The notes beneath the pieces were generated by a model. It had not been told where the DNA came from. It ran no database searches and saw only the letters and a list, made by a program, of their open reading frames with translations. This document shows, piece by piece, positions 3,239 to 58,913 of a stretch of DNA of 64,000 bases; the first letter of the stretch is position 1, and each line of letters begins with the position of its first letter. Position numbers and translations under genes: made by a program. The DNA comes from Bacteroidales bacterium UBA2295 (GTDB taxonomy: Bacteria; Bacteroidota; Bacteroidia; Bacteroidales; Tenuifilaceae): positions 3,778 through 67,777 of the forward strand of contig DDWD01000212.1 in the NCBI GenBank assembly GCA_002345825.1, read 5' to 3'.

Positions 3239-3304
3239 AATCAATGATTTTTCGTTGAGTTGCAAAGATAATATAGATATTAGCAAAAACCTTTGCCGTA
3301 TTAA

Positions 3305-4095: not shown

Positions 4096-4288
4096 AGAAA
4101 AATTAGTATAATTACGGGGTTATTGAAACTTGCGAATAGGTGCATCTTTCCTGAGATTAAAGTGCATTCGCATTTCTCGATGGCAAAATCAAGCCAGCCT
4201 CAAAAACCGATTAAACGAATACCCAAACAAAAATGGTTTAAAAACCTTTTGAATCCAATTTTCTGAGAGCAAAAAATCAAAAGGTTAG

Positions 4289-40138: not shown

Positions 40139-41011
40139 CTAATTTGCCCTGTTAGTTTGCTTAGGGCTAGGCTCAAAAAATTTAAAACTATCGACAATAC
40201 CATCAAACTCATAGGGGCTAAGGGGAGATTTTACACCCATATTTTTTGTAAAAACAACAACAAGCATAAGGTTTACCAACATAGCCGTCCAAAGGAAGAT
40301 GTAAAAAGTGGCATTATCGGCATAACCAAAATATTCGCCATTAGGGTTCTGCACAAGAAAGAGAAATGCATCATGAATGTAATGATATACAATACCCGCT
40401 ATTAATGCTCTTGTACGCAATGCCACAAAAGAAAAAGTAATACCAATTATGAACACAGAAATAACCTCGAAAAGGGCTTCTGGCGTAAATCCAGTTATAT
40501 GACACAACGCAAAAATTACTGTTTGTAACCAAAATGCTTTACTTATGCTCCTATAATGGCGAATTAGGATAATCATTAGCACACCCCGAAACATTATCTC
40601 CTCCCAAATTCCAGGAGTTAAGGAGAAAACAAAATGCCCAAGCGATAGGTTACTCCAGTTAAACTCGAATTTGCCGGTGAAATGCGAACCAAAATACATC
40701 CCGGTAAGAGAAACAACCCCGAGAAGAATCCCTAGAAATATTTGCTTCACAACACCCGATGGTACAAAAACACCAACTGAGCGCAGCCACTCCCATATGG
40801 CTTTTTTCCCAAAAGGAATTTTAAAAACTCTTGGAAATAAAAAAAGAATTGAGGCGCTAGTAACCGTAAATGCTATTATTGCTTTTTGTAATTTTGACAT
40901 ATCGAGGTCGAAGCCTTTGTTAACTAGCATTACAATTAACGGCCCAATCACTGAAAACAGTATTGCAAGGTATATTTGCATTCCTGTTCTACCAAGAATT
41001 TTTTTTCCCAT
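40139..41011 (-). CDS. CPBP family intramembrane glutamic endopeptidase (CAAX protease/Abi type)
   Basis: Motif 1 WEEIMFRG, motif 2 FALCH, motif 3 YHYIHDAF, and 7-8 TM helices. Confidence 0.8.
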   Translation of the reverse strand: MGKKILGRTGMQIYLAILFSVIGPLIVMLVNKGFDLDMSKLQKAIIAFTVTSASILFLFPRVFKIPFGKKAIWEWLRSVGVFVPSGVVKQIFLGILLGVVSLTGMYFGSHFTGKFEFNWSNLSLGHFVFSLTPGIWEEIMFRGVLMIILIRHYRSISKAFWLQTVIFALCHITGFTPEALFEVISVFIIGITFSFVALRTRALIAGIVYHYIHDAFLFLVQNPNGEYFGYADNATFYIFLWTAMLVNLMLVVVFTKNMGVKSPLSPYEFDGIVDSFKFFEPSPKQTNRAN

Positions 41012-41231: not shown

Positions 41232-41990
41232 TTAAATACATTTAAACATATGGTTTAACTTGCTATCTATTAAATGCTCTTCACCAAGCTGTTTAATAAT
41301 ATCGTTCTTATACTTCCAGGTAATAGAAATACATTGGCATTTATCCCCAATCAATTTAAGTAGGTGAATGATGTGGGTTAGATAATTGAGATTATTCTCA
41401 TCAATTGAGTGGATAAAAAAATCGACGTTAAAACTAATTGCCTCAGGCTCATTATACCTTAACATCTCAAGCCACAAAACTAGGGGATAAAAATACACCC
41501 AGGGCTCGCTGTGAACACAGCTGCCCTCTATGATTATATCAACAGAATCGTCGTAGTAAACAAGAGGAGCAGCGTCTGTCATTATATGACTAAACGTACT
41601 AGGTAATTGCTTTTCAGTAATATTGAAGGGGAATTTAAAAAATTCAGCAAACTCTTCGCCATCTTCTTTGATATCAATATCATCTGCAAAGTAGTGCCAG
41701 TTTACAACTACTTGCTTACCCTTGTCATGCTGTTTCTCGAGCAGCTTAAAAAGATCATAAAAAGATTTGGACGAAGAGTTGCCAAAATACATCATAGAAA
41801 AACTAACCTCGAGGCTAATCCCACCCGAAAAAAAATATTTATCAACCCAATTTATAAGTGCCGTGTAGAATAAAGTAGGGTTTTCGGGTATTGAAATCCC
41901 CGACACCTGCACAGTACCCTTTTGGGAGTCTGCAACTATAAGCGGTTCTCGATTTGAGGGGGAGTTTATTAGGTTTTCCATTTTGCTCAC
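41232..41990 (-). CDS. Tandem DUF1987 (SiaC-like) domain protein
   Basis: The first half matches the DUF1987 pattern as I remember it: VSGISIPENPTLFYTALINWVDKY, then YFGNSSSKSFYDLFKLLE, then VVVNWHY. The second half repeats the fold pattern (IIEGSCVHSEPWVYFYPLVLWLEML..ISITWKY) but has no SSS motif. Confidence 0.6.
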   Translation of the reverse strand: MSKMENLINSPSNREPLIVADSQKGTVQVSGISIPENPTLFYTALINWVDKYFFSGGISLEVSFSMMYFGNSSSKSFYDLFKLLEKQHDKGKQVVVNWHYFADDIDIKEDGEEFAEFFKFPFNITEKQLPSTFSHIMTDAAPLVYYDDSVDIIIEGSCVHSEPWVYFYPLVLWLEMLRYNEPEAISFNVDFFIHSIDENNLNYLTHIIHLLKLIGDKCQCISITWKYKNDIIKQLGEEHLIDSKLNHMFKCI

Positions 41991-42197: not shown

Positions 42198-42226
42198 GGC
42201 AGGCGAGCACTCGGTGCTCGCCTGCC
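42198..42226 (-). terminator. 13-bp perfect hairpin, terminator of the caspase operon
   Basis: GGCAGGCGAGCAC-TCG-GTGCTCGCCTGCC, 30 nt downstream of the lipoprotein stop codon. T-rich tracts lie on both sides, so it may act in both directions. Confidence 0.7.
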
Positions 42227-42256: not shown

Positions 42257-43828
42257 CTAAATATCCTCATTGGGATCGTAAACCCAAAAATCCTTTTTGT
42301 AACCAACGGGTTGGGTGTACTCTGCTCCCGTTCCAAAATAGCCTTTACCATTTAGAGCAACGCCAATGGCTGAGTACCGACTCCCTGGCTTCATGTATGT
42401 TTTTTGTGTCCATGTATTATCTGCAGGCGAAAACTCCCACAAATCGTAATAGGGTGTTGATCCTGTGTATCCAGAGCCAACATAAGCCTTGTCGCCAATA
42501 ACAAAGCTTATAGCTGAGAACCTTCTATTATCCCAGGTAGGTTCAATACCTGCTGCTTCGGCCCAGGTATCGGCACTAGGATTATACTCCCAAAATTCAG
42601 CTCTCACTTCGTTGTTATAACCAGTACCAATGTACCCCTTGCCATTAACAGCAAAGCCAACCGCTTTGTATATTAAGCCGCCGCCATAAGATTGCTTCTG
42701 AGTCCACACATCGGTTTGGGAGTCGTACTCCCAAAAGTCAGGATTAAACAGATTACTTACCCCCATTCCAACGTACCCCTTATCACCAATGGCAAAGGCA
42801 GCAGCGCCGTCTCTAGGAGAGCCACCAAAATCGGCTATTCGTGCCCACTGGCCAGTTGTTGGGTTGTACGCCCAAAAATCCTTGCTATCGCCCCCTTGAA
42901 TTGCACCTGTGCCCACATATCCCTTGCCGTTAATTACAAATGCAACTGCTGTGTGACGGGGTTCTCCGGGGAAGTCTGCAATTCTGCTCCACTGGTCTGT
43001 ATCGGGGTTGTACTCCCAAAAATCGGAAGTGAACTCATTGCTTGGGGTTGTTCCGGTACCAACATATATCCTATTGCCAATGGCAAAGGACACTGCTGCG
43101 CTCCTCTCCTCGCCACCAAAATCGGCTAGCTGCGTCCAAGGATCAGGAAGGGTTCTAAATTCAAGTTCTTGGCCATAAGAAGTTCCTATGGAATTTGTTG
43201 CGTAGGCTCGGGTGAAGTAAACTGTATTGGGCAGCAAATTAGATAGGTTACAAGTAAACTCATAGTCTTCCCACTCATTAAGTTCTCCTTGTATCTTAAA
43301 ATCATCAATCGTTGGATTAGGTGTAGTGGCCCAACAAACTCCCGCTGTGGTGGTTGCACCGCCATCATATAGCAACTTTCCGCCAAAAACTGCGGAATTT
43401 GTGGTTATGTTTTCAACAGCAGCGAAACTCTGTACAATAGGTGCTCCAACCACAGTTGAGAACATCTTTTCGTCTCCGTAGTACACACCCCTATCGGTCT
43501 GTGCAAAAACCCGATAGTTATAATGGGTATTTGATGAAAGGCCATTTGCCTGAACAGTAAAAGTAGAATTACCCAATGAACCCTCAACATATCCATCAAC
43601 TATTGTTGGCATAGGATGTGGACTAAAACAGATGCCCAATTTCTGGATCGTTGCACCACCATCGGAAACTAATTCGCCCTTAAGGGTTGCCGATTCGGCA
43701 TTTATTTCTGTTGCCTCAAGGGTGCGCAGCTCGGGATCTGTTAAAACCTCGTCAGAACAAGAAATTACAACCGCTAGGCACACTAGGACAACTGCAAACA
43801 CTTTGAATATATTTTGAATAGATCTCAT
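42257..43828 (-). CDS. Lipoprotein with two Ig/FN3-like repeats and a six-bladed Kelch-like beta-propeller
   Basis: Lipobox (..VVISC SDE). Two repeats of about 90 aa (ATLKGELVSDGGATIQ.. and AVFGGKLLYDGGATTT..). Six repeats of the pattern W..IADFGG..R..AV.F.I..KGYVGTG....DFWEYNP. Confidence 0.75.
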   Translation of the reverse strand: MRSIQNIFKVFAVVLVCLAVVISCSDEVLTDPELRTLEATEINAESATLKGELVSDGGATIQKLGICFSPHPMPTIVDGYVEGSLGNSTFTVQANGLSSNTHYNYRVFAQTDRGVYYGDEKMFSTVVGAPIVQSFAAVENITTNSAVFGGKLLYDGGATTTAGVCWATTPNPTIDDFKIQGELNEWEDYEFTCNLSNLLPNTVYFTRAYATNSIGTSYGQELEFRTLPDPWTQLADFGGEERSAAVSFAIGNRIYVGTGTTPSNEFTSDFWEYNPDTDQWSRIADFPGEPRHTAVAFVINGKGYVGTGAIQGGDSKDFWAYNPTTGQWARIADFGGSPRDGAAAFAIGDKGYVGMGVSNLFNPDFWEYDSQTDVWTQKQSYGGGLIYKAVGFAVNGKGYIGTGYNNEVRAEFWEYNPSADTWAEAAGIEPTWDNRRFSAISFVIGDKAYVGSGYTGSTPYYDLWEFSPADNTWTQKTYMKPGSRYSAIGVALNGKGYFGTGAEYTQPVGYKKDFWVYDPNEDI

Positions 43829-43856
43829 AGTTGTATGTATGAAATTTTAGTATCAA

Positions 43857-45251
43857 TTAAAACAGCTCGCTGATGTGAAGTCCAAGGGCAAGTTCTATGT
43901 TGATTGATGAATATCTTCTTGAATTTTCATCAAATCCAAGCCGTAAGGCGTGCATATCGAACATATGCCATGAGTCGGCATAATTTAATTTTAACAGGTG
44001 CATAGCCGATGAGATGCGAAAATAGAAGTACTTACTAGGCTGAATATTCATATTGATGCGCCCAAACAGATAACCATAACTTTTATTCTCCTGCGTAAGT
44101 CGTACCACATCATCGTCCCACTCATATTTACCAAATGGTAGGGTGGGGTGCGAATAAATCATTTGATTCGTTGCAAGATCAAGGCCAGTAAACTCAGCAT
44201 TACCCCATATGGAGCTCTCATAGGAAGGCTTTACCTGAATCTGAGCACCCAAATCGAAGGAGAAGTTAAATTTTGGTTTACCGGTCTGGAATCTTACAAA
44301 TACTGGTACAGCGCTGTATTCAACTTTTATATAATGGTAAAAATGGGCAAAATTGAGAATTGGTATAAAACCCTGTATCTCGTCAGCCACTATATACTGG
44401 TTGGCACTCACCTCAAAACGAGCAATATGTTTATCCTTACCGTATCCCACACCAAAACCAAACCATGGCTTGGGCATATATACAAGATTAAATATAAGGC
44501 CATTGTAAGCTGATGAGGTTCGATAATCGCCTGAATATGTTAATTCATTTGATAAGGAATAGGTGTAATAAAAATCATTAATCTGGTCGTAAGCCTCATA
44601 TGTAAAGGGGTTTCCATTAGAACTATAGCGATAAGGAAACATCCCTGCCATGGCCACAATATTTGAACTAATCTCAAGAAACAACCCCTCGCGAAACATT
44701 TTCTTCCTAAAAACCTTATTATGATAGTCTGCCGAAGCAATTCTGGAGATGGATTTTTTTGAACCAGCAGATCGGATATAGAAGTACTGATGGTCGGCAA
44801 AGCTAAGAATCTTCCCATCTTTTCGAATTCCGGAGTATTCAACGGGAGCTTTAAACACATGGGTTTTTGAAAAGATACTTCCTCGGATATCTAATAGTTC
44901 TATGCTGTCTACACTAAACGCCGTGCCTAAACCATCGGGGTAACTGCCCACAATGTGCGTATGAAATTGCAGGGGTGATATAAAATCGCCTTTAAAATGC
45001 TCTTTGGATAGGAAGTTATGAATAATCTTGCTTTTGGAACTACCAAAAAGAGATAGAAGATCCTGAGCATTATTGGCATAATCGTCGGGGTTATTGGCAT
45101 ACCTATCGAAAGTCTTTAGGTAAAGAGTAACTTGCCCCTTCGATTCCAAGGCTCTTGGGCTATCGGCTTTTTTGTGCTGAGCCCACAAGTTGTTAGCCAA
45201 AAATATTAAACCAATGCTAAAAACAATATACTTTATTGTATTGCTATTCAT
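43857..45251 (-). CDS. Outer-membrane beta-barrel protein with N-terminal soluble domain (unknown function)
   Basis: Signal peptide (..ANNLWAQ), alternating-hydrophobicity strands in the C-terminal ~290 aa, and a C-terminal ..HISELF. Start moved to ATG 45251, 20 nt after the caspase stop. Confidence 0.7.
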   Translation of the reverse strand: MNSNTIKYIVFSIGLIFLANNLWAQHKKADSPRALESKGQVTLYLKTFDRYANNPDDYANNAQDLLSLFGSSKSKIIHNFLSKEHFKGDFISPLQFHTHIVGSYPDGLGTAFSVDSIELLDIRGSIFSKTHVFKAPVEYSGIRKDGKILSFADHQYFYIRSAGSKKSISRIASADYHNKVFRKKMFREGLFLEISSNIVAMAGMFPYRYSSNGNPFTYEAYDQINDFYYTYSLSNELTYSGDYRTSSAYNGLIFNLVYMPKPWFGFGVGYGKDKHIARFEVSANQYIVADEIQGFIPILNFAHFYHYIKVEYSAVPVFVRFQTGKPKFNFSFDLGAQIQVKPSYESSIWGNAEFTGLDLATNQMIYSHPTLPFGKYEWDDDVVRLTQENKSYGYLFGRINMNIQPSKYFYFRISSAMHLLKLNYADSWHMFDMHALRLGFDENSRRYSSINIELALGLHISELF

Positions 45252-45271
45252 ATGGTAAAAGGTTATAGTGA

Positions 45272-46906
45272 TTACCGATTTAGTTTCCAACTACGCCAAT
45301 CGTTGCTTAGCTGATGGCTCACATTAAGGGTTGGGTTCTGCTCTCTATTGTTGTGGATAATGGAAGATGTGGCCACCTTTGATGTAACATAGTCAACCAG
45401 CTCGCCCATGGTAATATCTCCACTGCTGTCCTGCAATGCTTTTAAAAGATAGTACGAGAACATTCCGTGAAACTTATTCCTGTAGGGCAAAGCCGACTCA
45501 TTACCCGCGCTAGCCGATAGCACCAAAACATTTCCCTTAACCGGTTCCTCACGAGGACGAATCCTAACTGCTCTTGCGGCAAGTAGGCCCTGCTCGCGGC
45601 CACCACCGCTAAAACAAGCATCGAGAAAAACGGTGATGCCCTTGGATGGATTTTCGCCTAGCTTGGCATACAAATCCTTTAGCTTAATGGCAAACTCTAG
45701 GTCATTTCCGCTAACATCAACAGGTATAATATGGCCTTCGCGGGTTTTCTCATCGGGAAAGCCATGGCCAGCAAAAAACATAATGGCTTCGCCATTGCCT
45801 TGGGTCGCCTTAAGCAGCGAAGTTAGCTGATTAATTCCTCGATGCATTTCAACAGCTTTAGCATCGAGCATAAAAATGATGTTCGACTCCTTTACCCCCA
45901 GAGTATTTATGGCATACTGCTTAAAGGTTTCGGCATCGCGGCGAGCAAATTCTACGTTCGACTCGTAGTTTAGCCCCTTTTGGTGCGAGCGGTAGTCCTC
46001 GTTGCCTACAATTAGCGCAAATCGGTTTTCGTAAACCCTGCCTATGGATGGAATAAGCGTATCGACATCCGACACCATCTCCACCTTTAGCTGCTCTGCC
46101 AAAAGTCTTTGTTCAACATCGGAGGCAACCTTGGCCTCAACAAAAAACTCCTGCTCGCCTACATTGCCCGCTAAATCATTTGCGGTTACACGAATTGGAT
46201 AGGTACCGCCAATGCGCGATAGCGGAACTTTTGCAATAAAAACAGAATCGTTCAGTGGAACGGCCTTGGTGCTATTTACATTTACCTCGGCAAGCGGATT
46301 CCGGTCCTTAACCAATACCTTAACCTCAACCTCGTTGGTGAAAATTTGAGGCCTGAAACCATCCATAACCCCATCGGGAGTAAGAACAGTAATCTGTGGC
46401 GGTGTAACATCTTTTATATCCGAAGGGTTGATGGTGAAATGAGCCAGAAAGTTACGAGGCGATCGTGCCAAAAAGTTTTGCCACTGCGATGGGTTAAGCG
46501 CAGCATCAATGGTTGGGGCAAAGCTAAATGGAATATCAACAGTAAACTTGTTTTGATCTATGTTGATATCGTCATCCACAACAAATTTTAGGGTTAGCGT
46601 TGAATTGAAGTAGAAAAGGTTGCTTCGGCTCTCCTCAAAGGTTTTGCAAACAATTTTACCGTCGCCGGGCATCTTCACCTTGTTCTTATCGAACACAATT
46701 AGCGATCGCTTATCGTCAATTGGTTTACGATCCTTATCGAGCCAATCGACCTGAAGAGCCAGAACAAACTCATTAGCCTCAACTTTTCCTGAACTTATTT
46801 TCAGTAGTCCCTGTTTGCTGCCAGGAGCAGTAAAAATAAGGGTTTGGCTTTGTAAATTAACAATTGAAACCAGTAATCCCAATAGCAATAACAATTTAGT
46901 CTTCAT
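45272..46906 (-). CDS. Exported caspase-family (peptidase C14) protein with N-terminal Ig-like domains
   Basis: Signal peptide MKTKLLLLLGLLVSIVNLQSQ. Caspase domain with ALIVGNEDY, catalytic His in MFFAGHG and catalytic Cys in VFLDACFSGG. Start moved to ATG 46906. Confidence 0.85.
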   Translation of the reverse strand: MKTKLLLLLGLLVSIVNLQSQTLIFTAPGSKQGLLKISSGKVEANEFVLALQVDWLDKDRKPIDDKRSLIVFDKNKVKMPGDGKIVCKTFEESRSNLFYFNSTLTLKFVVDDDINIDQNKFTVDIPFSFAPTIDAALNPSQWQNFLARSPRNFLAHFTINPSDIKDVTPPQITVLTPDGVMDGFRPQIFTNEVEVKVLVKDRNPLAEVNVNSTKAVPLNDSVFIAKVPLSRIGGTYPIRVTANDLAGNVGEQEFFVEAKVASDVEQRLLAEQLKVEMVSDVDTLIPSIGRVYENRFALIVGNEDYRSHQKGLNYESNVEFARRDAETFKQYAINTLGVKESNIIFMLDAKAVEMHRGINQLTSLLKATQGNGEAIMFFAGHGFPDEKTREGHIIPVDVSGNDLEFAIKLKDLYAKLGENPSKGITVFLDACFSGGGREQGLLAARAVRIRPREEPVKGNVLVLSASAGNESALPYRNKFHGMFSYYLLKALQDSSGDITMGELVDYVTSKVATSSIIHNNREQNPTLNVSHQLSNDWRSWKLNR

Positions 46907-48073: not shown

Positions 48074-48559
48074 ATGACCGCCAAGGAATACAATTTATGT
48101 GTCGATAAGTTTGCCGATGGACTGTATCGTTTTGCCCTAAAAACGCTAAACGATGCCGACAGGGCTAACGATGTGGTGCAGGATTGTTTTGAGCGGCTGT
48201 GGGTAAAACACAACGATGTTGATAACACCAAGGCAAAGTCGTACCTGTTCACTTCGGCTTATCACGCTTGCATAGATGTGATTAGAGCGAATAAGCGCAG
48301 CGGGGCTATGGACGAAAGCATTGAAGATAGCCTATATACCACAACACAATATAGCGATTTGCAAGAGGTGCTGCACGAGGCGCTAAAAAAGCTATCGGAA
48401 ATTCAGCGATCGGTAATTTTACTAAGAGACTACGAAGGATATTCGTACGAGGAGATTGGGAATATTACGGGGCTTACCGAATCGCAGGTAAAAGTTTACA
48501 TATATAGGGGGCGTTTGGCGCTTAAGCAATACATTGGACATTTAGAAACAGTAATATAG
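48074..48559 (+). CDS. RNA polymerase ECF-type sigma-70 factor
   Basis: Region 2 (DVVQDCFERLW, YLFTSAYHACID) and region 4 (RSVILLRDYEGYSYEEIGNITGLTESQVKVYIYRGR). Confidence 0.9.
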   Translation: MTAKEYNLCVDKFADGLYRFALKTLNDADRANDVVQDCFERLWVKHNDVDNTKAKSYLFTSAYHACIDVIRANKRSGAMDESIEDSLYTTTQYSDLQEVLHEALKKLSEIQRSVILLRDYEGYSYEEIGNITGLTESQVKVYIYRGRLALKQYIGHLETVI

Positions 48560-48561
48560 TC

Positions 48562-49608
48562 ATGCCAATTAACAGAAACAACTACGAGGTTTACTTCATC
48601 GATTACATCGATGGCAATCTTTCGTCTTCGCAGGCAAAGGAGTTGCTGGCATTCCTCGAGCAAAACCCCGACCTGGCAGCTGAACTAAATGGTATTGACA
48701 ACGCACACCTACAACCCATTGAAAGTCCATATTCAAAAAGTGAGTTTTTAAAAAAGGATTTACAGTGGGGTGTAGCGAACCGATTAGATTACCTATGCAT
48801 TGCAAAAATTGAGGGCGATATATGTAACGAAGAGGAGAGCGAGTTGCAGGAACTTTTAGTAGCCAGCTCTGTGGCAAAATCTGACTTTGCCTCTTTTGAA
48901 AAATCGAGGCTACTTGCTGACTCAAAAATTGCTTTCTCAAATAAATCGGCTATAAAGCATATTAACATTCTAGGCCTCACCTACAAAACCATTTGGGCCT
49001 TAGGTTCCAGTGTGGCTGCTGTATTTATAGTTTTATTTGGATTAGCCATAGGGCTTAATAGATTTTCCAAAATGCCCGATCAGCCTCTGGCCTTGAGCAG
49101 CAAAAATAATGATGGAATTGAAAAAGCTATTGAACCGATTGAAATTGAGAATAGCATAAAAAAACCACAGGTTGAAATGCCCACTGCTGATATTGTTGAA
49201 AAACACTCACAACCCATACCAGTTAAGGCGTCATCGGCAAAGACCACAGATCAGGACCAACCCGAACCCTCTAGATTTGTGGCCGACAATAAAATTGAAG
49301 TAATCTCGAGAATTGAACTAGCCTCAATACCACAATCGGTAACAATAGAGGATAGCAAAGCCCTACTAGCAATGGCGGGTATTTCGGTAAATTCGGTGGC
49401 AAATTCCCAAAAGAGTAATATTCAAAAGCAATCTGGCGTCCGCGAGATTGGCCTCTTTGAGCTAGCTCAAATGGGCTTCGACCGGCTATCGGAGGTAACT
49501 GGCAAAACCCTAAGTCTTAATGCCCATAAGGATAGTGATGGGGATATTAGAAAAATTAATTTCGAGTCGGAGCTGTTTGCCTTATCGGTTCCCGTTAGGA
49601 AAAAATAA
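48562..49608 (+). CDS. Putative anti-sigma factor (single-pass membrane protein)
   Basis: Starts 3 nt after the sigma gene. Cytoplasmic N-terminal ~135 aa, one TM helix (IWALGSSVAAVFIVLFGLAIGL) and a low-complexity C-terminal part. Assigned from context only. Confidence 0.5.
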   Translation: MPINRNNYEVYFIDYIDGNLSSSQAKELLAFLEQNPDLAAELNGIDNAHLQPIESPYSKSEFLKKDLQWGVANRLDYLCIAKIEGDICNEEESELQELLVASSVAKSDFASFEKSRLLADSKIAFSNKSAIKHINILGLTYKTIWALGSSVAAVFIVLFGLAIGLNRFSKMPDQPLALSSKNNDGIEKAIEPIEIENSIKKPQVEMPTADIVEKHSQPIPVKASSAKTTDQDQPEPSRFVADNKIEVISRIELASIPQSVTIEDSKALLAMAGISVNSVANSQKSNIQKQSGVREIGLFELAQMGFDRLSEVTGKTLSLNAHKDSDGDIRKINFESELFALSVPVRKK

Positions 49609-49622
49609 GAATTTGCCAAGAG

Positions 49623-49654
49623 CCTGTAACTTTTAGTTTAGCTCACCGTCATAC
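49623..49654 (+). promoter_or_regulatory. Second copy of the ECF-type promoter (CCTGTAAC-N16-CGTC) upstream of the OMP gene
   Basis: CCTGTAACTTTT and CACCGTC[A/T]TACA are shared with 48019-48050. The spacer is again 16 nt. It lies 49 nt upstream of ATG 49703. Confidence 0.55.
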
Positions 49655-49702
49655 AGCAAAATTATCAACCAAAATTTTATTAATCACTAAAGAAAATTGA
49701 AT

Positions 49703-50662
49703 ATGAAATTACTATTAACAACACTGCTGCTGGCCGTTTACACAACCTTTTCGATGGCCCAAAATGATAGCCTAAAAGTTTTAAGAGAATTGGAGGAATC
49801 TGACACTACAAAAACCACTATGCAAGACACCTCCAAATTGGGCAAAACAGTCAAGGCACTTGCAGGAGAAACAAACAAGGATACCACAAAAATTAGAATT
49901 GGGAAACGGGAAGTTATTATTATTGAAAAAGATGGAACCACTTCGATTGAAATCCCCGAATCTGGCGATAAGCATACCTTTGACATCGATACAGACAAAG
50001 ATTTTACCTACAAGCGTAAACCAAAGTTTAAAGGCCATTGGGCTGGATTTGAATGGGGTTTCAACGGCTTTATGGATGCTGATCAATCGATCAACATGCA
50101 GGATGATCTTAAATATCTTGAACTTAAACAGGGTCGTTCATGGAATTTTAATCTTAACTTCTTGCAGTACAGCTTTGGGTTTGGTACCGATAAGGTTGGG
50201 TTAGTAACCGGTTTGGGTTTTGAGTTTAATAATTACCACTTCAGAAACGGGAATTCTATTGAAGTGGTTGACGGGCAAACGGTAGCAGACAACTCGTATT
50301 TAACAGATCCCGGTATAATTGTCACCAAGTCTCGATTATCAACAACTTACATCACCGCCCCATTGTTACTCGAGTTCCAGATTCCAACAAGCTATAGGCA
50401 TAGAATATATTTCTCGGCAGGAGTTGTAGGGGGTGTAAAAATTGGTTCAAACACCAAGGTGGTATACGAGGGTGTAAACAAAGGAAAAGATAAGATTCGT
50501 GACGACTTCAACATCTCTCCCTTTCGATATGGAATCACATCTCGCATAGGATATCGTGGACTGAGCCTATTTGCTACCTACTACCCAGTGCAGTTCTTCG
50601 AAAAAAACAAGGGTGATGAGGTGTATCCTTTCAGCATTGGCTTGAGACTCCTAAACTTCTAA
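49703..50662 (+). CDS. Outer membrane beta-barrel protein (porin-family/OmpA-barrel-like), probable ECF regulon member
   Basis: Signal peptide (..TFSMAQ), a charged linker, then amphipathic beta strands. C-terminus ..IGLRLLNF. Confidence 0.7.
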   Translation: MKLLLTTLLLAVYTTFSMAQNDSLKVLRELEESDTTKTTMQDTSKLGKTVKALAGETNKDTTKIRIGKREVIIIEKDGTTSIEIPESGDKHTFDIDTDKDFTYKRKPKFKGHWAGFEWGFNGFMDADQSINMQDDLKYLELKQGRSWNFNLNFLQYSFGFGTDKVGLVTGLGFEFNNYHFRNGNSIEVVDGQTVADNSYLTDPGIIVTKSRLSTTYITAPLLLEFQIPTSYRHRIYFSAGVVGGVKIGSNTKVVYEGVNKGKDKIRDDFNISPFRYGITSRIGYRGLSLFATYYPVQFFEKNKGDEVYPFSIGLRLLNF

Positions 50663-50743: not shown

Positions 50744-50751
50744 TATATTTG
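50744..50751 (+). promoter_or_regulatory. -7 promoter box TATATTTG
   Basis: TAnnTTTG match 30 nt upstream of ATG 50782. The ORF-track start at 50749 lies inside the box. Confidence 0.5.
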
Positions 50752-50781
50752 CGGGGTATAGTTCACCAAAACTATCAGCCA

Positions 50782-52800
50782 ATGGTCAGATTTTTCACCA
50801 CCCTTATAATGCTAGCAACATTGTCCTGCCTTGGTAGCTGGGCCAATAGCATTAACCACATCGATAGCCTTAAGCAACTAGAAAAGTCTGCACCACATGA
50901 CTCCATTAGGATAAAAATTCTTAGCGAAATAGCCATAGCATATTCCGACAGCTCATACGCTAAAAGCATAAACACTTGGAAAGAGGCGCTTGCAATTGCT
51001 AATAAGCTTAGAGATAGGCAGCAGATGGGCGACATCCATCATCAAATTGGATACATACTTTACCAACAGGGAGAGTTTAAAAACGCACTGCAAGAGTATA
51101 ACAACGCTTTGTCGGTATACAACTACATTAGCAATAAGCAGGAAGTTGCAAGAGTATATAACGATATTGGTCTTGTATACAAAACCTGGGGACGATACGA
51201 ACTTGCCATTGAAAGTTTTATAAAAGGGCTTGAACTGTTTGAGGAGATACCTGATGAGGAGGGTATGGCAATGGTCTCTAACAATATAGGGCAAATACAT
51301 TTTTTTAGGGAAGATTATAATAAAGCCATTAGCTACTTCAACACATATTTAACCATAAACGAGCAAAACAAACGTCCCCGAGCAGTAGCTGGAGCATCCA
51401 ATAATATCGCAGCAGCATATATGGAGCTTAAGAACTACAACCAAGCCTTAAGCTACTACAACAAATCATTAAGTATTTACGATTCCCTTGACCTAACGAT
51501 TGGTGTAGCAATTCTAAGCGACAACATAGGTATGCTACATACTAATAAAAATAATTTTAAAGAAGCGCTAAAACATCATTTTAAGGCGCTTAAACTTTTC
51601 AACTCGCTCAATAGCCAATCGCGCATATCGTATACCCTAAAAAATATTGGTGTTGCCTACTACATGTTAGGCGATTATAACAATTCAGATAAATATTTAC
51701 TTCAAGCTAAAGATCTCGCAATACACTACCAGCAGAAAGAAACCGAGAAGGAAATATATTACAACCTCTGCAATGTTTACGAGGCAAAGAAACAACCAGC
51801 AAAAGCCCTTAAATACTACAAGCTGATGACAGCAATAAAAGATTCGCTGTTTACTGCTGAAACAACCAAGAACATCGCATCAATTGAACTACAATACGAA
51901 GCGGAAAAGAAAGAAAGAGAATTCAGGTACATACAACAAAAACTTGAACAGCAAAAAATGTTTAGGGTCATCACTGGCTCAATAATTATAATCATATTGG
52001 CCCTTATGGTTTTGCTGATAATTGACAATAACCGAAAGAGAGTGTTGATTAGCAAGCTATACCAACGCAAACTTTTTTTGATGCAAACCCTTGAGCACTG
52101 TATCGAAAACAGGTTGGGCCGACATGAACCTGGTGAAAGTTTGCCCATACACACAACAATTTTACCAAAAACCGTTGGTTCTCAACCGGAATGCCAATTA
52201 GCAATATACAATAGCCCAGAACTAAAAATTATAATAACACTTTGGTCTCAAGTTCCAGAAGTTCCTTTGACCATTATCAAAGCGTTTCTTCTTAATGAAC
52301 TACCAAAAAATCATAATAACAATAACCCGAAACAACCTAAAGACTTAATTGAACTAATACAAAGTAAGTTTCTATTTACTATGGATTTGTTCGACATTAA
52401 ACCCCACGATATCCTGCATACAGTTCTAGTTGTTGACTGCGAAAACAGAAAGGTTGTATTTGGTTCAAAAGCTGATAAACTTTGGGTTTGTAAGTCAAGT
52501 GGTACGGAGTTAATTCACCCCAATAGTGCCATAAGTGTTGACTCGCTAAAAAACAGTGAACCATTGCTTTATGCAATAACCAGCAGTAATCATCAGAATG
52601 CAAAGGCATTTGAGGAACACCTATTTAAAACCACCACAACAGTATCGGTTAACAACATGCAAAGCAAACTTGAGGTAATCAATAGCGCTCTAGAAACATG
52701 GAATCTCTCCGAGCTCCCATCTAAACAGTTCATATACTTGGCCGTTAGCATCGATTGTGATTTGCCCATCAGCATAGCTAACGTAGGTAAATTGTCATAA
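50782..52800 (+). CDS. TPR-repeat / transmembrane protein with uncharacterised cytoplasmic C-terminal domain
   Basis: Signal/anchor, about 330 aa of TPR repeats (A..Y....L.IY type), a coiled coil and a TM helix (ITGSIIIIILALMVLLII). The remaining ~240 aa lack the PP2C motifs seen in the 12906 paralog-like protein. Confidence 0.7.
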   Translation: MVRFFTTLIMLATLSCLGSWANSINHIDSLKQLEKSAPHDSIRIKILSEIAIAYSDSSYAKSINTWKEALAIANKLRDRQQMGDIHHQIGYILYQQGEFKNALQEYNNALSVYNYISNKQEVARVYNDIGLVYKTWGRYELAIESFIKGLELFEEIPDEEGMAMVSNNIGQIHFFREDYNKAISYFNTYLTINEQNKRPRAVAGASNNIAAAYMELKNYNQALSYYNKSLSIYDSLDLTIGVAILSDNIGMLHTNKNNFKEALKHHFKALKLFNSLNSQSRISYTLKNIGVAYYMLGDYNNSDKYLLQAKDLAIHYQQKETEKEIYYNLCNVYEAKKQPAKALKYYKLMTAIKDSLFTAETTKNIASIELQYEAEKKEREFRYIQQKLEQQKMFRVITGSIIIIILALMVLLIIDNNRKRVLISKLYQRKLFLMQTLEHCIENRLGRHEPGESLPIHTTILPKTVGSQPECQLAIYNSPELKIIITLWSQVPEVPLTIIKAFLLNELPKNHNNNNPKQPKDLIELIQSKFLFTMDLFDIKPHDILHTVLVVDCENRKVVFGSKADKLWVCKSSGTELIHPNSAISVDSLKNSEPLLYAITSSNHQNAKAFEEHLFKTTTTVSVNNMQSKLEVINSALETWNLSELPSKQFIYLAVSIDCDLPISIANVGKLS

Positions 52801-54136: not shown

Positions 54137-55408
54137 ATGATCAAACGAAATACGTTTCTGTTTCTCCTCTTGCTAACCTCTGCTTGGCCTGTGTTTGCAG
54201 GCGATACCATTAGGGTAATGCATTACAACCTGCTATACTACGATATGAACACCTCGTGGTGTACCAGCGTAAATAACAATGTGACCGAAAAAGACTCATA
54301 CCTTAAGACGATTACATCCTATTACAAGCCCGATATTTTTACTGTGAATGAAATGAACGGAAGCGTTAGCAGCGTTGACAGGATTATTGAGAATGTTTTA
54401 AACGACGATGGATCGACTAACTATAAAAGAGCAAATTACGCAGGAAGCTACCTTGTTAATATGCTTTATTACAACACCAACAGGCTTGCCCTTAAGTCGC
54501 AAACCTACATTTTAACCTCACCACGAATTACCGATGTCTATCGTTTGTACTACAAATCGGACGACTTGGCTAAGGGCGACACCATTTTCGTAACCTGTAT
54601 TGTTACTCACCTTAAGGCAGGAAGCGGATCGAGCGAAGCGGCAACCAGAGCCCAAGCCGCATTGCAAATAATGAGCCATATCGATAAGTACAATGTTGAT
54701 GACAACATCCTTTTTATGGGCGATTTTAATGTTTACACATCAGCCGAGGAGGCCTTTCAGTCGTTTATAACACCAACACCCTCTGGAGTACAAATCTTCG
54801 ATCCTATTGATGCTGTTGGTAGCTGGAATAACAATTCATACTATGCACCCTACCACACGCAGTCAACACACACATCGGGCGATTGCCACTCAGGAGGTGG
54901 TATGGATGATCGATTCGACTTTATTCTATCCTCAAAATCAATATTAGAAGGGAGTTCAAGAACAAATTACGTTAAGGATTCCTATTGGGCATATGGTCAG
55001 GATGGTAACCGTTTCAACCAATCTCTAATCAGCCCCAGTAATACAACATTGCCCAGCCACGTGCTCAACGCCCTGTACAATATGTCCGATCACCTCCCCG
55101 TAACGCTTAAACTTTATGTTGATGCAAACCCTTTAATGGGTTCAGATGTTAATATCAGCAATTCGGGTAACATTAGGGTTAAAAACCCAATTGACAATTC
55201 AATCTTGCTATGGAGCAAAAGCGACAAAGCCGAGTACGTTGAAATAATGGTTACAAACCTACTGGGAAGTGTAATGATAAGAGAAAACCTTACGCTGTAC
55301 CCCAACGAAAAATGTAGTTTCGGTGCAGCTCAGTTACCATCGGGTATATACATAATAACGGTGAAAGGTAAAAGCATCTCGTTTATTTCAAAAATCATTA
55401 AAAGATGA
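54137..55408 (+). CDS. Endonuclease/exonuclease/phosphatase (EEP) family protein with T9SS C-terminal sorting domain
   Basis: Signal peptide. EEP motifs (VMHYNL, FTVNEMN, GDFN, DRFDFIL, SDHLPV). The last ~80 aa resemble a T9SS type A CTD (..LPSGIYIITVKGKSISFISKIIK). Confidence 0.75.
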   Translation: MIKRNTFLFLLLLTSAWPVFAGDTIRVMHYNLLYYDMNTSWCTSVNNNVTEKDSYLKTITSYYKPDIFTVNEMNGSVSSVDRIIENVLNDDGSTNYKRANYAGSYLVNMLYYNTNRLALKSQTYILTSPRITDVYRLYYKSDDLAKGDTIFVTCIVTHLKAGSGSSEAATRAQAALQIMSHIDKYNVDDNILFMGDFNVYTSAEEAFQSFITPTPSGVQIFDPIDAVGSWNNNSYYAPYHTQSTHTSGDCHSGGGMDDRFDFILSSKSILEGSSRTNYVKDSYWAYGQDGNRFNQSLISPSNTTLPSHVLNALYNMSDHLPVTLKLYVDANPLMGSDVNISNSGNIRVKNPIDNSILLWSKSDKAEYVEIMVTNLLGSVMIRENLTLYPNEKCSFGAAQLPSGIYIITVKGKSISFISKIIKR

Positions 55409-55415
55409 TTAGCCT

Positions 55416-58307
55416 ATGCGTTACGCCCTGTTTTTGTTTACAATCCTTTTGATATCGGGACAAGCAATTGGCCAGTACTACGTAAGTGGTCAGGAGCCTT
55501 TTCGTTTCAAATGGGAGCAAATTCAGAATGAAAACTTCCGCCTAGTTTTCCAAGAAGGGGCTGACTCTACTGCCACAGTTTTCGAAAAATATATAGATCA
55601 ATCCCTACTACGAGTATCTACAACCCTAAACCATAATCCTAGTAAGTTCTCGGCTGTAATACATAGCAATAGCATCCTATCGAATGGTTTTGTATCGTGG
55701 GCTCCACGCAGAATGGAGGTAATTTCAACCCCATCCCTCGATGCCTCACCAGATCCGTGGCTGCTGCATCTTGCGTTACACGAAACACGGCATGTTGTAC
55801 AACTCGATAAAATTTTTGGGAATAAATATAGAGTTGGAAACCTATTATTCGGAGAGCAAGCCATTGGTTTTAAACTACTGCTAACACCCCTTTGGTTCCT
55901 CGAGGGCGATGCTGTTTTCGCCGAGACAGCTTATTCTAAAGCAGGTAGGGGCAGACAATCTGCATTTTACATACACTACCTTGCTCATATGGCTCAAAAC
56001 GGAGGCTCAAAATATAGCTACGACAAGTGGTTACTGGGTTCTTATAAAGACTACATCCCTAATCATTACAGCTTTGGATATCAGATGGTGGGATACACCA
56101 ACATGAAGTATGGAACTAATGTTTGGAGCAATGCTTTAACCGATGTTTCGCGAAAGCTATTTTTTACTTTTCCATTTTATCGCTCTGTAAAACGAAGCAC
56201 TAAACAATCAACAAAACAACTATTTGCCGAGATAATTCTGTACCACGATTCGCTTTGGCAAACAATTAAAGTTAATGATGAGATAAATATTCATAAACAG
56301 CTTCTTTACAAAAGTTACAAGCATAATAACTTTATTGAATACACCCACCCATATTTAATAAACGACTCAACCTTAATCTCACTAAAAAAATCACTATCCC
56401 AAAGGCCCCAGTTTATTATTGCTAGGTTGAATGACAAATCGGAGAAAAGGATACATACACCAGGCATACTCACTGGGCCAGTAAACTACTCAACCAATCA
56501 AATACTTTGGAGCCAGTATAGTGCTCACCCTCGATGGGAGTACGTTGATTACTCCGAAATCTGGCAATACGATTTAACATTGCAAAAAGCCCAAAGAATT
56601 ACTACCAAAACAAGGTGCTTCAACCCAATTGAATATGCCAATGGCTCCATTGCAGTAATTGAGAATAGTGCTAGGGGTGACTATTTCATCGCCGTAATTG
56701 ACCAACAGGGCAAAAAATTGCATAGCCTAAAAATGCCCAACACCCTTGAGCTAAAAGAGATTTGCAGGGGCGATAACACCGAAATATTTGCCAGATGTGC
56801 ATCGCCTAACGGAATGGTCATACTTAAATATCCTGATATGTATAGCCAACCCGACACAACCTTAGGGCCAATACACAACGATATTTCCAACTTAACCTAC
56901 AATCAAGATTATCTTTACTTCACCAAGACACACAATTACAGAGAGAATATATATGCAATTAATACACTCTCTAACAAAGTATATAGTATTTCAAACTCAA
57001 CATTTGGTTTAAGTAATTTAAGTTATAACAAGCAGCTTGTTGCCAGCGAATTTTCAACCTCGGGCGCATATCCCGTTGTGGTATCCATTGACTCTACATT
57101 TATAGGAACGCTGGAGAAAGAGGAACTACCCCTATTTTTTAGCAAAAACACATATTTGGACTATAACTTGCCACACAATGCTCCCGATCATAATAACCAC
57201 AATAGCGAATATGGTAAGTATGTAAAAGCAAAAAATATTTTCAACATACACAGTTGGGCTCCTATTTATTACAATCCAATGGACCTAATAAACGGAAGCA
57301 CAACAATATACCCAGGGGTTTCTTTTATATCGCAAAACCTAACCAGCACTGTGGTTTCAAGCATAGGATACTCCTACAATAAAACCCACGGAGGGCACGC
57401 CCACATTGAATATATGGGGTGGTATCCAAAAATTATGGCTGGTATAGACTATGGCAATGAGTACTCAGTTATACAGCATGGCCCGCTGGCCCCCAACCTT
57501 ATAAGCTACTCGGACCAACCCAGAGCGAAAGCACAGCTAAGAGTTCGAATACCTTACACCTTTTCGTCTGGGAATATTGTAAGCTCGGCCAACTTGGGGA
57601 TTTCACTAGTCTATAGCAACGATTGGATGTGGAGTTATGCCGATGAGCTCTACCAGAAATGGTATGGCTCACTTGAGCCATACATTTCGTTTTATGCGCT
57701 AACCAGAAAAGCCCATAGGGATATTAGATCCAAATATGGAGTGCAACTATTTGCAGCAACGCTAAGCTCACCAACGAGCAAGGTTCTAGGAAATTCATCG
57801 TTTATTAAAGGTTGGCTTTTCTTGCCTGGTTTGAGCGCAAACCACAGCTTGTTGCTTACGGGGCAGAGCGAGACCCAAACACCACAGCAATACGTTAGAA
57901 CCTTGCGCTACACGCCCGCAAGGGGTTATGACCGATCACTCTCCAAATCGGTTGTAACTGCCTCAATCGATTATACCTTCCCTGCAGCTTATCTAGACAT
58001 AGCAATCGGTCCCGTATTGTATATAAAAAGGTTGGTGGGGAACTTTTTCTACGATAATGCTGTTGAAGACAGGTATATACAGAGCGATAATGGTCTTATT
58101 CCCCAAAGGGAAAGGATACAAACCGTTGGCCTTGATATAACCACCGATTTTCATCTATTTAGAACATCATACCCACTCAATGTTGGTTATAGAGGTGGAT
58201 TCAGGCTAAACGAAGGGACTTTTTTCCATAGCATAATTTTTTCGGCTTCACTCGAAAGTCTTACAGGTTACCTACCTTCGCTGCACAATGCTGTATTTAA
58301 TTTTTAG
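55416..58307 (+). CDS. Large exported protein: N-terminal HExxH domain, central repeat region, C-terminal beta-barrel-like region
   Basis: Signal peptide (..GQAIGQ). LALHETRHVV followed by FLEGDAVFAE, a gluzincin-like H-E-x-x-H..E arrangement. The C-terminal ~350 aa are beta-rich and end with ..NAVFNF. Confidence 0.7.
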   Translation: MRYALFLFTILLISGQAIGQYYVSGQEPFRFKWEQIQNENFRLVFQEGADSTATVFEKYIDQSLLRVSTTLNHNPSKFSAVIHSNSILSNGFVSWAPRRMEVISTPSLDASPDPWLLHLALHETRHVVQLDKIFGNKYRVGNLLFGEQAIGFKLLLTPLWFLEGDAVFAETAYSKAGRGRQSAFYIHYLAHMAQNGGSKYSYDKWLLGSYKDYIPNHYSFGYQMVGYTNMKYGTNVWSNALTDVSRKLFFTFPFYRSVKRSTKQSTKQLFAEIILYHDSLWQTIKVNDEINIHKQLLYKSYKHNNFIEYTHPYLINDSTLISLKKSLSQRPQFIIARLNDKSEKRIHTPGILTGPVNYSTNQILWSQYSAHPRWEYVDYSEIWQYDLTLQKAQRITTKTRCFNPIEYANGSIAVIENSARGDYFIAVIDQQGKKLHSLKMPNTLELKEICRGDNTEIFARCASPNGMVILKYPDMYSQPDTTLGPIHNDISNLTYNQDYLYFTKTHNYRENIYAINTLSNKVYSISNSTFGLSNLSYNKQLVASEFSTSGAYPVVVSIDSTFIGTLEKEELPLFFSKNTYLDYNLPHNAPDHNNHNSEYGKYVKAKNIFNIHSWAPIYYNPMDLINGSTTIYPGVSFISQNLTSTVVSSIGYSYNKTHGGHAHIEYMGWYPKIMAGIDYGNEYSVIQHGPLAPNLISYSDQPRAKAQLRVRIPYTFSSGNIVSSANLGISLVYSNDWMWSYADELYQKWYGSLEPYISFYALTRKAHRDIRSKYGVQLFAATLSSPTSKVLGNSSFIKGWLFLPGLSANHSLLLTGQSETQTPQQYVRTLRYTPARGYDRSLSKSVVTASIDYTFPAAYLDIAIGPVLYIKRLVGNFFYDNAVEDRYIQSDNGLIPQRERIQTVGLDITTDFHLFRTSYPLNVGYRGGFRLNEGTFFHSIIFSASLESLTGYLPSLHNAVFNF

Positions 58308-58903: not shown

Positions 58904-58913
58904 ATTAGTTACT

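Follow-up and report, generated by a model that had tools for sequence, protein, structure and literature searches.

Three close-set genes, encoding a caspase-like protease, a 464-residue outer-membrane (OM) protein and a lipoprotein, lie on the minus strand of the window (the whole stretch of 64,000 nucleotides that was analysed). Their orientation, the short gaps between them and the perfect terminal hairpin, as given in the initial annotation of this DNA, were confirmed by ORF calling, spacer and hairpin analyses, and the coordinates are listed in Table 1. The terminator scan counts the hairpin as 14 pairs, ten of which are G-C, and it is likely to be the terminator of the three-gene unit. 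The protease reading frame was taken to start at the ATG at position 46906; an alternative reading of 564 residues starts at 46966, and the former was preferred because all homologs begin at a signal peptide that runs from MK through a hydrophobic stretch to Gln. The flanking genes comprise those for an e(P4) phosphatase, a SiaC-like protein and a CPBP protease, and an ECF sigma operon. Their synteny is shared with Perlabentimonas gracilis alone and, because it is missing from the other homologous loci, they were rejected as members of the module.

Table 1. Features of the three-gene locus, in window coordinates.
Feature	Position	Strand	Evidence
Exported C14 caspase-fold protease, 544 aa	45272–46906	-	ORF, Pfam PF00656, AF2, Foldseek, alignment A1
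Codon of catalytic His381 (FFAGHGF)	45764–45766	-	Invariant in 32 homologs; aligns with MALT1 YAGHGY
Codons D429-A430-C431 (DACFSGG; C431 is the catalytic Cys)	45614–45622	-	Invariant; aligns with MALT1 LLDMCRK
Post-Cys loop, aa 434–449, with invariant R437 and R445	45560–45607	-	pLDDT <50 at 434–438 and 442–449
Caspase/barrel intergenic spacer, 20 nt	45252–45271	-	
Outer-membrane protein, 464 aa	43857–45251	-	ORF, homolog alignment A3, AF2, Foldseek, strand map
Predicted surface loop L1, aa 199–247, Tyr/Asn/Asp-rich	44511–44657	-	Alignment A3, strand map
Barrel/lipoprotein intergenic spacer, 28 nt	43829–43856	-	
Predicted surface-exposed lipoprotein, 523 aa	42257–43828	-	ORF, Pfam Kelch, lipobox, repeats
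Hairpin, perfect 13-bp stem, 3-nt loop, G+C-rich	42198–42226	-	Hairpin and terminator scans

An exported protease with a caspase-like domain

The protease consists of a signal peptide (residues 1–20, predicted cleavage between S20 and Q21), a β-sandwich domain (residues 21–165), an Ig-like domain (residues 170–258), a helical linker and a caspase domain (residues 295–544), as delineated in an AF2 model with a pLDDT of 84. The Ig-like N-terminal region that had been proposed for this product is thus recovered in the model. Pfam matches at E≤1 in this region are weak and Ig-like for the second domain (Glucodextran_B, Big_13, Big_7), and nothing consistent was obtained for the first. Residues 295–530 match Peptidase_C14 (PF00656) with an E-value of 7.7e-18 and a score of 65.5 bits (cut-off 21.4). 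The best Foldseek matches of the model are the MALT1 paracaspase (E=1.8e-10) and caspases-8, -9 and -7 (target-normalised TM about 0.7), and a caspase-hemoglobinase fold with p20-like and p10-like parts is present in the model. No solved structure in the PDB was matched by the caspase profile at E≤0.01.

Both residues of the catalytic dyad, His381 and Cys431, are invariant across the 32 family members of alignment A1. The residues critical for activity are therefore retained and, with the Sec signal peptide and a C14 domain scoring above its cut-off, uphold the earlier description of an exported caspase with an intact dyad. Asp429, two residues before the cysteine, would correspond to the S1 acidic residue of paracaspases and metacaspases, which suggests a specificity for Arg or Lys (basic P1) from a single aligned Asp in a weak alignment with MALT1 (E=0.007, single-domain search). 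The Arg-containing loop that follows the cysteine is a candidate autoprocessing site, in the position of the p20/p10 linker.

The signal peptides of all 32 family caspases end in A/S/G-Q, and the predicted cleavage sites of both the caspase and the outer-membrane protein agree with the Q-rule for signal peptidase I substrates of Bacteroidetes (PMC5837995). In the caspase, the signal peptide is of type I, with the Bacteroidetes A/S-Q cleavage pattern and no lipobox, and the Pfam scan found Peptidase_C14 alone, with no C-terminal domain (CTD) of the T9SS (Por_Secre_tail). Because it lacks both a lipobox and a T9SS tail, the protein is most likely periplasmic, judging by these sorting signals; of the two locations that had been put forward, periplasm or surface, the first is favoured and the second is not.

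Export of a caspase-fold protein is not unusual here as such. Signal-peptide or lipoprotein-like N-termini were found in 57 of 65 related caspase ORFs that lack the N-terminal domains of the module (several of these ORFs are truncated fragments), and exported caspase-fold proteins are numerous in Bacteroidota genomes. Probable signal peptides in many prokaryotic metacaspases had already been noted in a 2012 survey (PMC3501461). The view of the exported caspase as an exception to cytoplasmic relatives was consequently not borne out.

The outer-membrane protein and its surface-destined partner

The 464-residue protein is composed of a signal peptide (cleavage between A24 and Q25, with Q25 invariant across the 21 homologs of alignment A3), a periplasmic N-terminal domain (residues ~26–185) and a β-barrel (residues 189–462) with loops L1–L4 and a C-terminal Phe (...SELF). 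The strands show conserved alternating hydrophobicity (residues 189–198, 248–261, 263–272, 312–325, 325–338, 393–406, 408–419 and 448–462), and are connected by long external loops and short periplasmic turns. The AF2 model, based on a four-sequence alignment, is weak (pLDDT 54 overall), with an all-β C-terminal half at 70–79 and an N-terminal domain of ~160 residues, devoid of Pfam and PDB matches, at <50. Foldseek relates the barrel to OmpA/OmpX/Ail/OmpW and to Pla/OmpT, with target-normalised TM values of 0.5–0.65 for OmpA, OmpX, Ail and OmpW. Pfam (E≤1) and NCBIfam scans of the window copy gave no match; two of the 21 homologs match PF13568 (best 5.8e-6) and two match PF13505, the window copy matching neither at E≤1, and the family profile retrieved nothing from PDB sequences even at E≤10. 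The homolog alignment and the strand map support the initial outline of a signal peptide, an N-terminal domain and a barrel ending in Phe; the assignment as an eight-stranded OM barrel is likewise supported, if not strongly for the window copy. As to the suggestion that the barrel is an anchor or translocon for the system, the anchor part is plausible, whereas a translocon is implausible because the barrel has only eight strands and, being of OmpA/OmpX size, is too small.

The barrel family is rare: in a set of 1.84 billion proteins it accounts for 23 representative clusters. Among six syntenic genes, that of the barrel evolves fastest (dN 0.18, compared with 0.02–0.10); within the module, conservation is highest for the caspase and lowest for the barrel. 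Loop L1, an insertion restricted to gene-order group A (see below), is a divergence hot spot, with an identity to P. gracilis of 30–50% in residues 201–240 compared with 70% for the whole protein.

The third protein contains a lipobox (V-I-S-C24) followed by S-D-E, which resembles a lipoprotein export signal. Consensus motifs of this signal have been described (PMC5080379), and the criterion applied was a lipobox Cys, then a polar or basic residue, then acidic residues. The corresponding motifs in the seven other group-A partners are C-T-D-E, C-K-K-E-E, C-K-K-D-E, C-K-M-E-E, C-K-Q-D-E, C-Q-K-D and C-D-E. On this sequence motif, the lipoprotein is predicted to be surface-exposed. Lys or Arg is also found 9–16 residues past the lipidated Cys in seven of the eight group-A partners.

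Residues 30–226 of the lipoprotein form two FN3-like repeats that are 36% identical to each other (E=1e-15), and residues 227–523 contain six recognisable Kelch blades. The lipobox, the repeat alignment and the Pfam Kelch matches all agree with the initial description of this product. Its database name, NanM/YjhT sialic-acid mutarotase, was rejected because its scores stay below the NCBIfam cut-offs (67 bits versus a cut-off of 416 for NF010730, and 60 versus 256 for TIGR03547); only generic Kelch repeats match.

Conservation of the module and its possible role

Co-occurrence was analysed in about 20 species-level genomes, in which loci with the caspase–barrel pair were compared with 56 paralog loci (L026–L081). 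Family caspases were defined by family-specific N-terminal β-sandwich domains, which are carried by 24 ORFs. The automated test found an adjacent barrel for 21 of them; in the remaining three, the caspase either overlaps the barrel gene by 11 nt (L020) or is cut by a contig end (L002 and L006), and the barrel gene directly adjoins the family caspase in every assessable locus. Among the 65 caspase ORFs that were scored as lacking the N-terminal domains, a barrel adjoins just one, which belongs to L009 and is a family caspase with a frameshift; no barrel homolog is present in any of the paralog loci. Strict conservation extends to the caspase, with its family N-terminal domains, and to the barrel; the locus as a whole is a conserved module of Tenuifilaceae-like Bacteroidales. 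In the cultured P. gracilis, the caspase is 92% identical and the gene order is the same.

Two gene orders (groups A and B) are observed. The barrel gene is central in both, at 5–57 nt from the gene of a surface-destined protein, which lies beside it in every assessable locus across the permutation. The partner is a surface-type lipoprotein with Kelch or Fib_succ_major domains in group A, and a giant T9SS cargo with a Por_Secre_tail (type-A CTD) in group B; overall, the partner domains are heterogeneous (Kelch, Fib_succ_major, LamG, PKD and FG-GAP). An ORF with FN3-like repeats is found in 17 of 22 pair loci, whereas just 3 of the 56 paralog loci have one (Fisher p=4e-10, for loci that are phylogenetically non-independent), and the cargo of two pair loci, L015 and L017, has no detectable FN3-like repeats. 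LuxR-type or response-regulator genes occur near several loci. Conservation of the trio thus holds for the pair with an adjacent surface-destined protein, usually with FN3-like repeats, and fails for the Kelch propeller, in place of which Fib_succ_major or a giant T9SS cargo is found elsewhere.

It is most improbable that three unrelated exported proteins are merely adjacent here. The barrel and the module have no functional annotation and their database names are 'hypothetical protein', as such a reading would allow, but the pair occurs in all assessable loci of about 20 species, whichever of the two gene orders they have, and the 56 paralog loci lack it, as expected of a conserved module. 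The leading, and still tentative, interpretation is an OM-tethered, Arg/Lys-specific periplasmic protease that would act on the co-encoded surface protein. The caspase would be exported by the Sec route and, for want of a lipid anchor and a T9SS tail, would stay in the periplasm, where it would probably first activate itself by cutting the Arg-containing loop after Cys431. The barrel would span the OM, with its N-terminal domain of ~160 residues on the periplasmic side and four long loops outside, and this domain may dock the family-specific N-terminal β-sandwich domains of the caspase; the docking is conjecture because the barrel domain is modelled at low pLDDT and matches nothing in Pfam or the PDB. 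Docking would keep the protease beneath the OM, and the third component, a variable adhesin-like surface protein (here the FN3-like and Kelch lipoprotein), could be cut en route to the surface for maturation, trimming, anchor release or turnover. Secreted clan-CD peptidases have already been proposed to process surface proteins and toxins (PMC3482391). It speaks against such a tether that a periplasmic protease with an eight-stranded barrel would meet the surface protein only transiently.

The strict conservation of the pair alone, the widely varying domains of the third gene, and the ranking of the caspase as most and the barrel as least conserved would also fit an envelope housekeeping pair, by analogy with OM-lipoprotein/periplasmic-protease pairs. 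The barrel would then be an OM adaptor that places the periplasmic caspase on other envelope proteins (peptidoglycan hydrolases, misfolded OMPs), and the surface-protein gene would be co-regulated or hitch-hiking rather than encode a substrate. We consider this unlikely, given the constant proximity of the surface-destined gene to the barrel gene in both gene orders, the strong enrichment of FN3-like repeat proteins relative to paralog loci, and a rarity of the family that housekeeping does not predict. Distinctly unlikely, in our estimate, is a bridge across the OM, a type of complex that would be new to the literature, in which the barrel surface loops would hold the adhesin-like protein and the periplasmic domain the caspase, either as a cargo-specific maturation or attachment route parallel to PorU/PorV and serving surface lipoproteins too, or as an outside-in proteolytic switch by which events at the adhesin would be turned into periplasmic caspase activity.

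Caspase-fold proteases are effectors in other bacterial defence systems, and an outside-in sensing or suicide device could be envisaged, in which the barrel loops, together with the surface protein, would detect a ligand, damage to the OM or the attachment of phage, and the periplasmic caspase would be released or activated, with signalling or cell death as the outcome. The rapid evolution of the surface loops, especially at L1, the varying partner cassette, which is typical of conflict and recognition systems, and the nearby response-regulator or LuxR-type genes are consistent with this idea. It is nevertheless given still less weight: a dN/dS of 0.12 points to purifying rather than diversifying selection, a rigid eight-stranded barrel would be a poor signal transducer, and no conserved regulator or immunity gene was found at the homologous loci. 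PADLOC returned only a generic caspase match of 28.5 bits, with no matches for the barrel and the partner, and a defence-type EACC1-associated caspase was rejected with a score of 49.2 bits where NCBIfam NF047832 requires 140. Less probable again is the proposal of the initial annotation, a surface protease that would use the barrel for anchoring or translocation and would bind a substrate or ligand through the Kelch propeller, perhaps as a digestive or adhesive complex at the surface or on OMVs. In its favour, all three products are exported, the lipoprotein has a surface-export-like motif, the long external loops could hold partners, and OMVs can carry periplasmic proteins out of the cell. 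However, eight strands leave no translocation pore, the caspase lacks a lipobox as well as a T9SS CTD, and the propeller is missing from most homologous loci, so the proposal was not sustained.

Significance and comparison with known systems

Searches of the literature on Perlabentimonas and on caspases in the context of the T9SS, Bacteroidetes or the periplasm yielded neither a description of the module nor a described function for it or for the caspase family, in line with the earlier remark that the trio could not be linked to a described system. The genes form a rare, conserved envelope module rather than encoding a cytoplasmic cell-death enzyme, and they are unusually well suited to genetic analysis, with a single protease family, a single dedicated OM partner, an obvious candidate substrate and a cultured host. 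Should surface lipoproteins and T9SS cargo prove to be matured or released by the protease, this would constitute a new step in Bacteroidota surface-protein biogenesis and would place bacterial caspase homologs beyond cytoplasmic roles in death and defence.

The barrel shares eight amphipathic strands, short turns, long loops and a terminal aromatic residue with the OmpA/OmpX/PorT-type barrels (PF13568/PF13505), but adds a conserved N-terminal domain of ~160 residues without detectable relatives, and the window copy is too diverged for the Pfam model. An autotransporter or two-partner translocon (passenger, helix, and a 12- or 16-strand barrel) was rejected on the eight conserved strands and the absence of any such Pfam match; NalP appears only at rank 39 of the Foldseek search, with a probability of 0.35. 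Like the genes of PorP/SprF-type barrels, the barrel gene lies directly beside that of a large surface adhesin-like protein; however, the CTDs of the module cargo are type-A rather than type-B and a protease gene invariably accompanies the barrel gene. Membership in this group was rejected, as none of the 21 barrel members matches PF11751 at E≤1.

In PorU/PorV of the T9SS, a clan-CD sortase-like protease and an OM barrel act on CTD cargo. The module similarly brings together a clan-CD cysteine protease, a barrel and a surface-destined cargo, and the neighbouring cargo in group B has a type-A T9SS CTD. In contrast to PorU, the module protease is a C14 enzyme (PF00656 only) rather than a gingipain-like C25 one and, as it lacks a CTD, the T9SS route to the surface is closed to it; the barrel has 8 strands instead of the FadL-like 14, and the partner in the window is a lipoprotein without a CTD. 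The module was thus rejected as a member of the PorU/PorV system.

The protease itself resembles bacterial orthocaspases (metacaspase-like C14) and MALT1 in its Pfam C14 domain, caspase-hemoglobinase fold, His-Cys dyad and Asp at Cys-2, and in a flexible Arg-containing loop after the cysteine, possibly autoprocessed. It differs from the described members in being Sec-exported, in possessing two N-terminal β-sandwich domains that they lack, and in the obligate association of its gene with that of an OM barrel.

Locus organization and flanking genes

The trio comprises genes for a caspase-like protease, an outer-membrane (OM) barrel protein and a lipoprotein, with intergenic gaps of 20 nt and 28 nt. 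The ORF calls, these gaps and the hairpin stem agree with the positions, tight spacing and terminal hairpin described in the initial annotation. A longer, 564-aa reading of the caspase gene is possible; all homologs open at the signal peptide corresponding to 46906.

Features of the trio and its surroundings
Feature	Position	Strand	Description
Caspase-like protease gene	45272-46906	-	544 aa, ORF
Barrel protein gene	43857-45251	-	464 aa, ORF
Lipoprotein gene	42257-43828	-	523 aa, ORF
Hairpin	42198-42226		13-bp perfect G+C-rich stem, 3-nt loop; directly past last stop codon of trio
SiaC/DUF1987 protein	41232-41990	-	252 aa; two matched stretches of PF09345 (E=2.5e-39)
CPBP/Rce1-like intramembrane protease	40139-41011	-	PF02517
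Divergent unit	48074-50662	+	ECF sigma factor, 348-aa protein, 321-aa PF13568 OM barrel
TPR protein	50749-52800		683 aa; after the ECF sigma unit
T9SS-sorted protein	54137-55408	+	Type-A C-terminal sorting domain
ORF	55416-58307		963 aa; between the two T9SS-sorted genes
T9SS-sorted protein	58590-59972	+	Type-A C-terminal sorting domain

The SiaC/DUF1987 gene, directly downstream of the hairpin, is syntenic in Perlabentimonas gracilis and missing from the remaining trio loci, and no SiaA/SiaB-like partner is adjacent to it. The CPBP/Rce1-like product weakly resembles the myxosortase-type models MrtJ and Mrt_core, with all similarities under the NCBIfam cut-offs, and its surroundings revealed no obvious substrate with a sorting signal. 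The 348-aa protein of the divergent unit has no Pfam match and occupies an anti-sigma-like position. The presence of a type IX secretion system in the organism follows from the T9SS type-A sorting domains on two of the gene products, one being an Endonuclease I; the 963-aa ORF between their genes has no Pfam match.

A conserved caspase-barrel module

An exported C14 protease, catalytically intact by sequence, and a dedicated small OM barrel form a conserved module, which is genetically coupled to a variable surface-destined protein. The conservation scan covered a single genome for each GTDB species and yielded 79 loci. The closest, in P. gracilis M08_MB, shares the gene order and flanking genes of the window trio (identities of 92% for the caspase, 70% for the barrel and 88% for the Kelch protein). 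Over the full set of loci, the family-specific N-terminal domains are present in 24 caspase ORFs, and a barrel homolog directly adjoins 21 of these in an automated test. The L020 caspase overlaps its own barrel gene by 11 nt, contig ends cut loci L002 and L006, and at L009 the barrel adjoins a frameshifted caspase. No barrel homolog was found in the paralog loci (L026-L081), where the catalytic domains are 45-57% identical and the N-terminal domains differ.

The gene order is caspase, barrel, lipoprotein in group A (caspase identity at least 56%) and giant cargo, barrel, caspase in group B (40-44%); the barrel gene is always central, with 5-57 nt separating it from the gene for the surface protein. 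The initial annotation envisaged a trio with a Kelch propeller; the pair is indeed conserved, but the third gene varies. It encodes FN3-like repeats with Kelch blades in the window, L001, L003 (P. gracilis) and L004 (twice), and FN3-like repeats with Fib_succ_major in L007, L008 and L009. The group-B cargo reaches 1,851 aa, several ORFs being truncated by the locus edge, and combines FN3-like, Fib_succ_major, LamG, PKD, FG-GAP or GLUG domains with a type-A T9SS C-terminal domain. FN3-like repeat ORFs are present at 17/22 pair loci versus 3/56 paralog loci (p=4e-10, loci not independent).

Of six syntenic genes compared with P. gracilis, the barrel gene has diverged furthest (dN 0.18, dS 1.5, versus dN 0.02-0.10 and dS 0.37-1.1 for the other five), yet its dN/dS of 0.12 shows that purifying selection persists. 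Its divergence peaks at residues 201-240 (30-50% identity), a group-A-specific insertion predicted to be surface loop L1. In Tenuifilaceae BF4_52 (L009), the caspase is 83% identical, the barrel only 36%, and the partner belongs to the Fib_succ_major type; thus, barrel and partner change together, faster than the protease.

Three further observations concern individual loci. Between the window and L003 (barrel gene at 2845-4239), dS is uneven among the six syntenic genes (Kelch 0.37, caspase 0.68, barrel 1.5); this pattern may reflect, instead of uniform divergence, recombination at the barrel gene or replacement of its allele. In Bacteroidales UBA2287 (L004 2550-11621), the entire trio is duplicated in tandem, and the copies have diverged (their barrels share 29% and 34% identity with that of the window). 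In BF4_52 (L009 6944-8585), two overlapping ORFs make up the family caspase, one for its N-domains and the other for its caspase domain, beside intact barrel and partner genes; this is a frameshift or a pseudogene, or else a sequencing error.

Protease, barrel and lipoprotein

By every available sequence and predicted-fold test, the protease belongs to peptidase family C14. Peptidase_C14 (Pfam) covers residues 295-530 (65.5 bits, cut-off 21.4), and when 32 full-length relatives (38-70% identity) are aligned, H381 (AGHGF) and D429-A-C431 (DACFSGGGR) are invariant, which upholds the catalytic dyad proposed earlier. In the AlphaFold2 model from this alignment (mean pLDDT 84), a signal peptide precedes a beta-sandwich (21-165) and an Ig-like domain (170-258), from which a helical linker leads to a caspase fold that is complete (295-544). 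Foldseek ranks the MALT1 paracaspase (E=1.8e-10), together with caspases-8/9/7 (target-normalised TM about 0.7), as nearest to the catalytic domain; MALT1 is its only solved relative by sequence (E=0.007). In the sequence alignment, FAGHGF is paired with YAGHGY and LDACFSG with LDMCRK, so that the MALT1 Asp two residues ahead of the catalytic Cys is retained. In para- and metacaspases this Asp helps to form the basic-P1 pocket, and from the MALT1 alignment we infer a specificity for Arg/Lys. The loop past the catalytic Cys (434-449) is predicted to be disordered, holds invariant R437 and R445, and is a plausible self-cleavage site.

Signal peptides end in A/S/G followed by Q in 32/32 family caspases and 21/21 barrels, a cleavage pattern shared by Bacteroidetes signal-peptidase-I substrates (PMC5837995). 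Because neither a lipobox nor a Por_Secre_tail domain was found in the caspase protein, it should be a soluble protein of the periplasm. Caspase export is in itself not new, since signal-peptide-like or lipoprotein-like N-termini occur in 57/65 related caspase ORFs without the N-domain (crude hydrophobic-run test and inspection; several ORFs are truncated fragments) and a 2012 survey (PMC3501461) had recorded many metacaspases of prokaryotes as having probable signal peptides.

The window barrel has no match in Pfam, NCBIfam or PDB sequences; 2/21 homologs match PF13568 (OMP_b-brl_2, best 5.8e-6) and 2/21 match PF13505. Scanned column by column for alternating hydrophobicity, the 21-member alignment gave exactly eight conserved amphipathic segments (residues 189-198, 248-261, 263-272, 312-325, 325-338, 393-406, 408-419 and 448-462); on one side the connections between them are very short turns, on the other they are long loops of 28-54 aa. 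The AF2 model from a 4-sequence alignment is poor (pLDDT 54), with an all-beta C-terminal half (pLDDT 70-79); its Foldseek matches are OmpA, OmpX, Ail and OmpW (target-normalised TM 0.5-0.65) and also Pla/OmpT. The protein is predicted to form a barrel of eight strands, with an N-terminal domain of ~160 aa in the periplasm and four long loops at the cell surface. Among 1.84 billion proteins, a profile of group-A barrels retrieves no more than 23 representative clusters, and all named copies are "hypothetical protein" from Tenuifilaceae except a 54-aa E. coli fragment. This fragment ("T3SS effector NleG family protein, partial") was probably placed in the cluster of barrel homolog P0246 by an artefact of its short length.

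The lipoprotein has a V-I-S-C24 lipobox followed by S-D-E, two FN3-like repeats (mutually 36% identical, E=1e-15) and six Kelch blades. In it and seven group-A counterparts, the residues after the Cys are polar or basic, then acidic, which fits the lipoprotein export signals that drive surface exposure in Bacteroidetes (PMC5080379). The database name "mutarotase" is unjustified, as the Kelch protein scores far under the NanM/YjhT cut-offs.

Proposed function and known systems

The module is real, conserved and rare. It consists of an exported protease of clan CD and its obligate OM partner, and neighbours a gene for a surface-destined protein. As the caspase N-domains and the barrel co-occur strictly, the periplasmic domain of the barrel may tether the protease through these N-domains, and the protease would act on the neighbouring-gene protein during its passage through the periplasm. 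The same co-occurrence excludes chance adjacency of the trio genes. The initial annotation, whose observation is confirmed, suggested as a possibility a surface protease with its own anchor or translocon and a substrate- or ligand-binding propeller; that interpretation is only partly supported and stands as a rival, the eight-stranded barrel being too small for a translocon. A housekeeping protease-adaptor pair and an outside-in sensing or suicide device are further rivals to periplasmic processing, and a known defence system receives no support from PADLOC.

A literature search found no papers describing a caspase-barrel module. Tests for defining features of the PorU/PorV pair, the PorP/SprF barrel, autotransporters, the NanM mutarotase and EACC1-type defence caspases each came out negative, and the trio is therefore none of these. 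Secreted clan-CD peptidases were earlier proposed as processors of surface proteins and toxins (PMC3482391). The module contradicts no established idea and offers a clean, testable way into the role of exported caspases in Bacteroidota.
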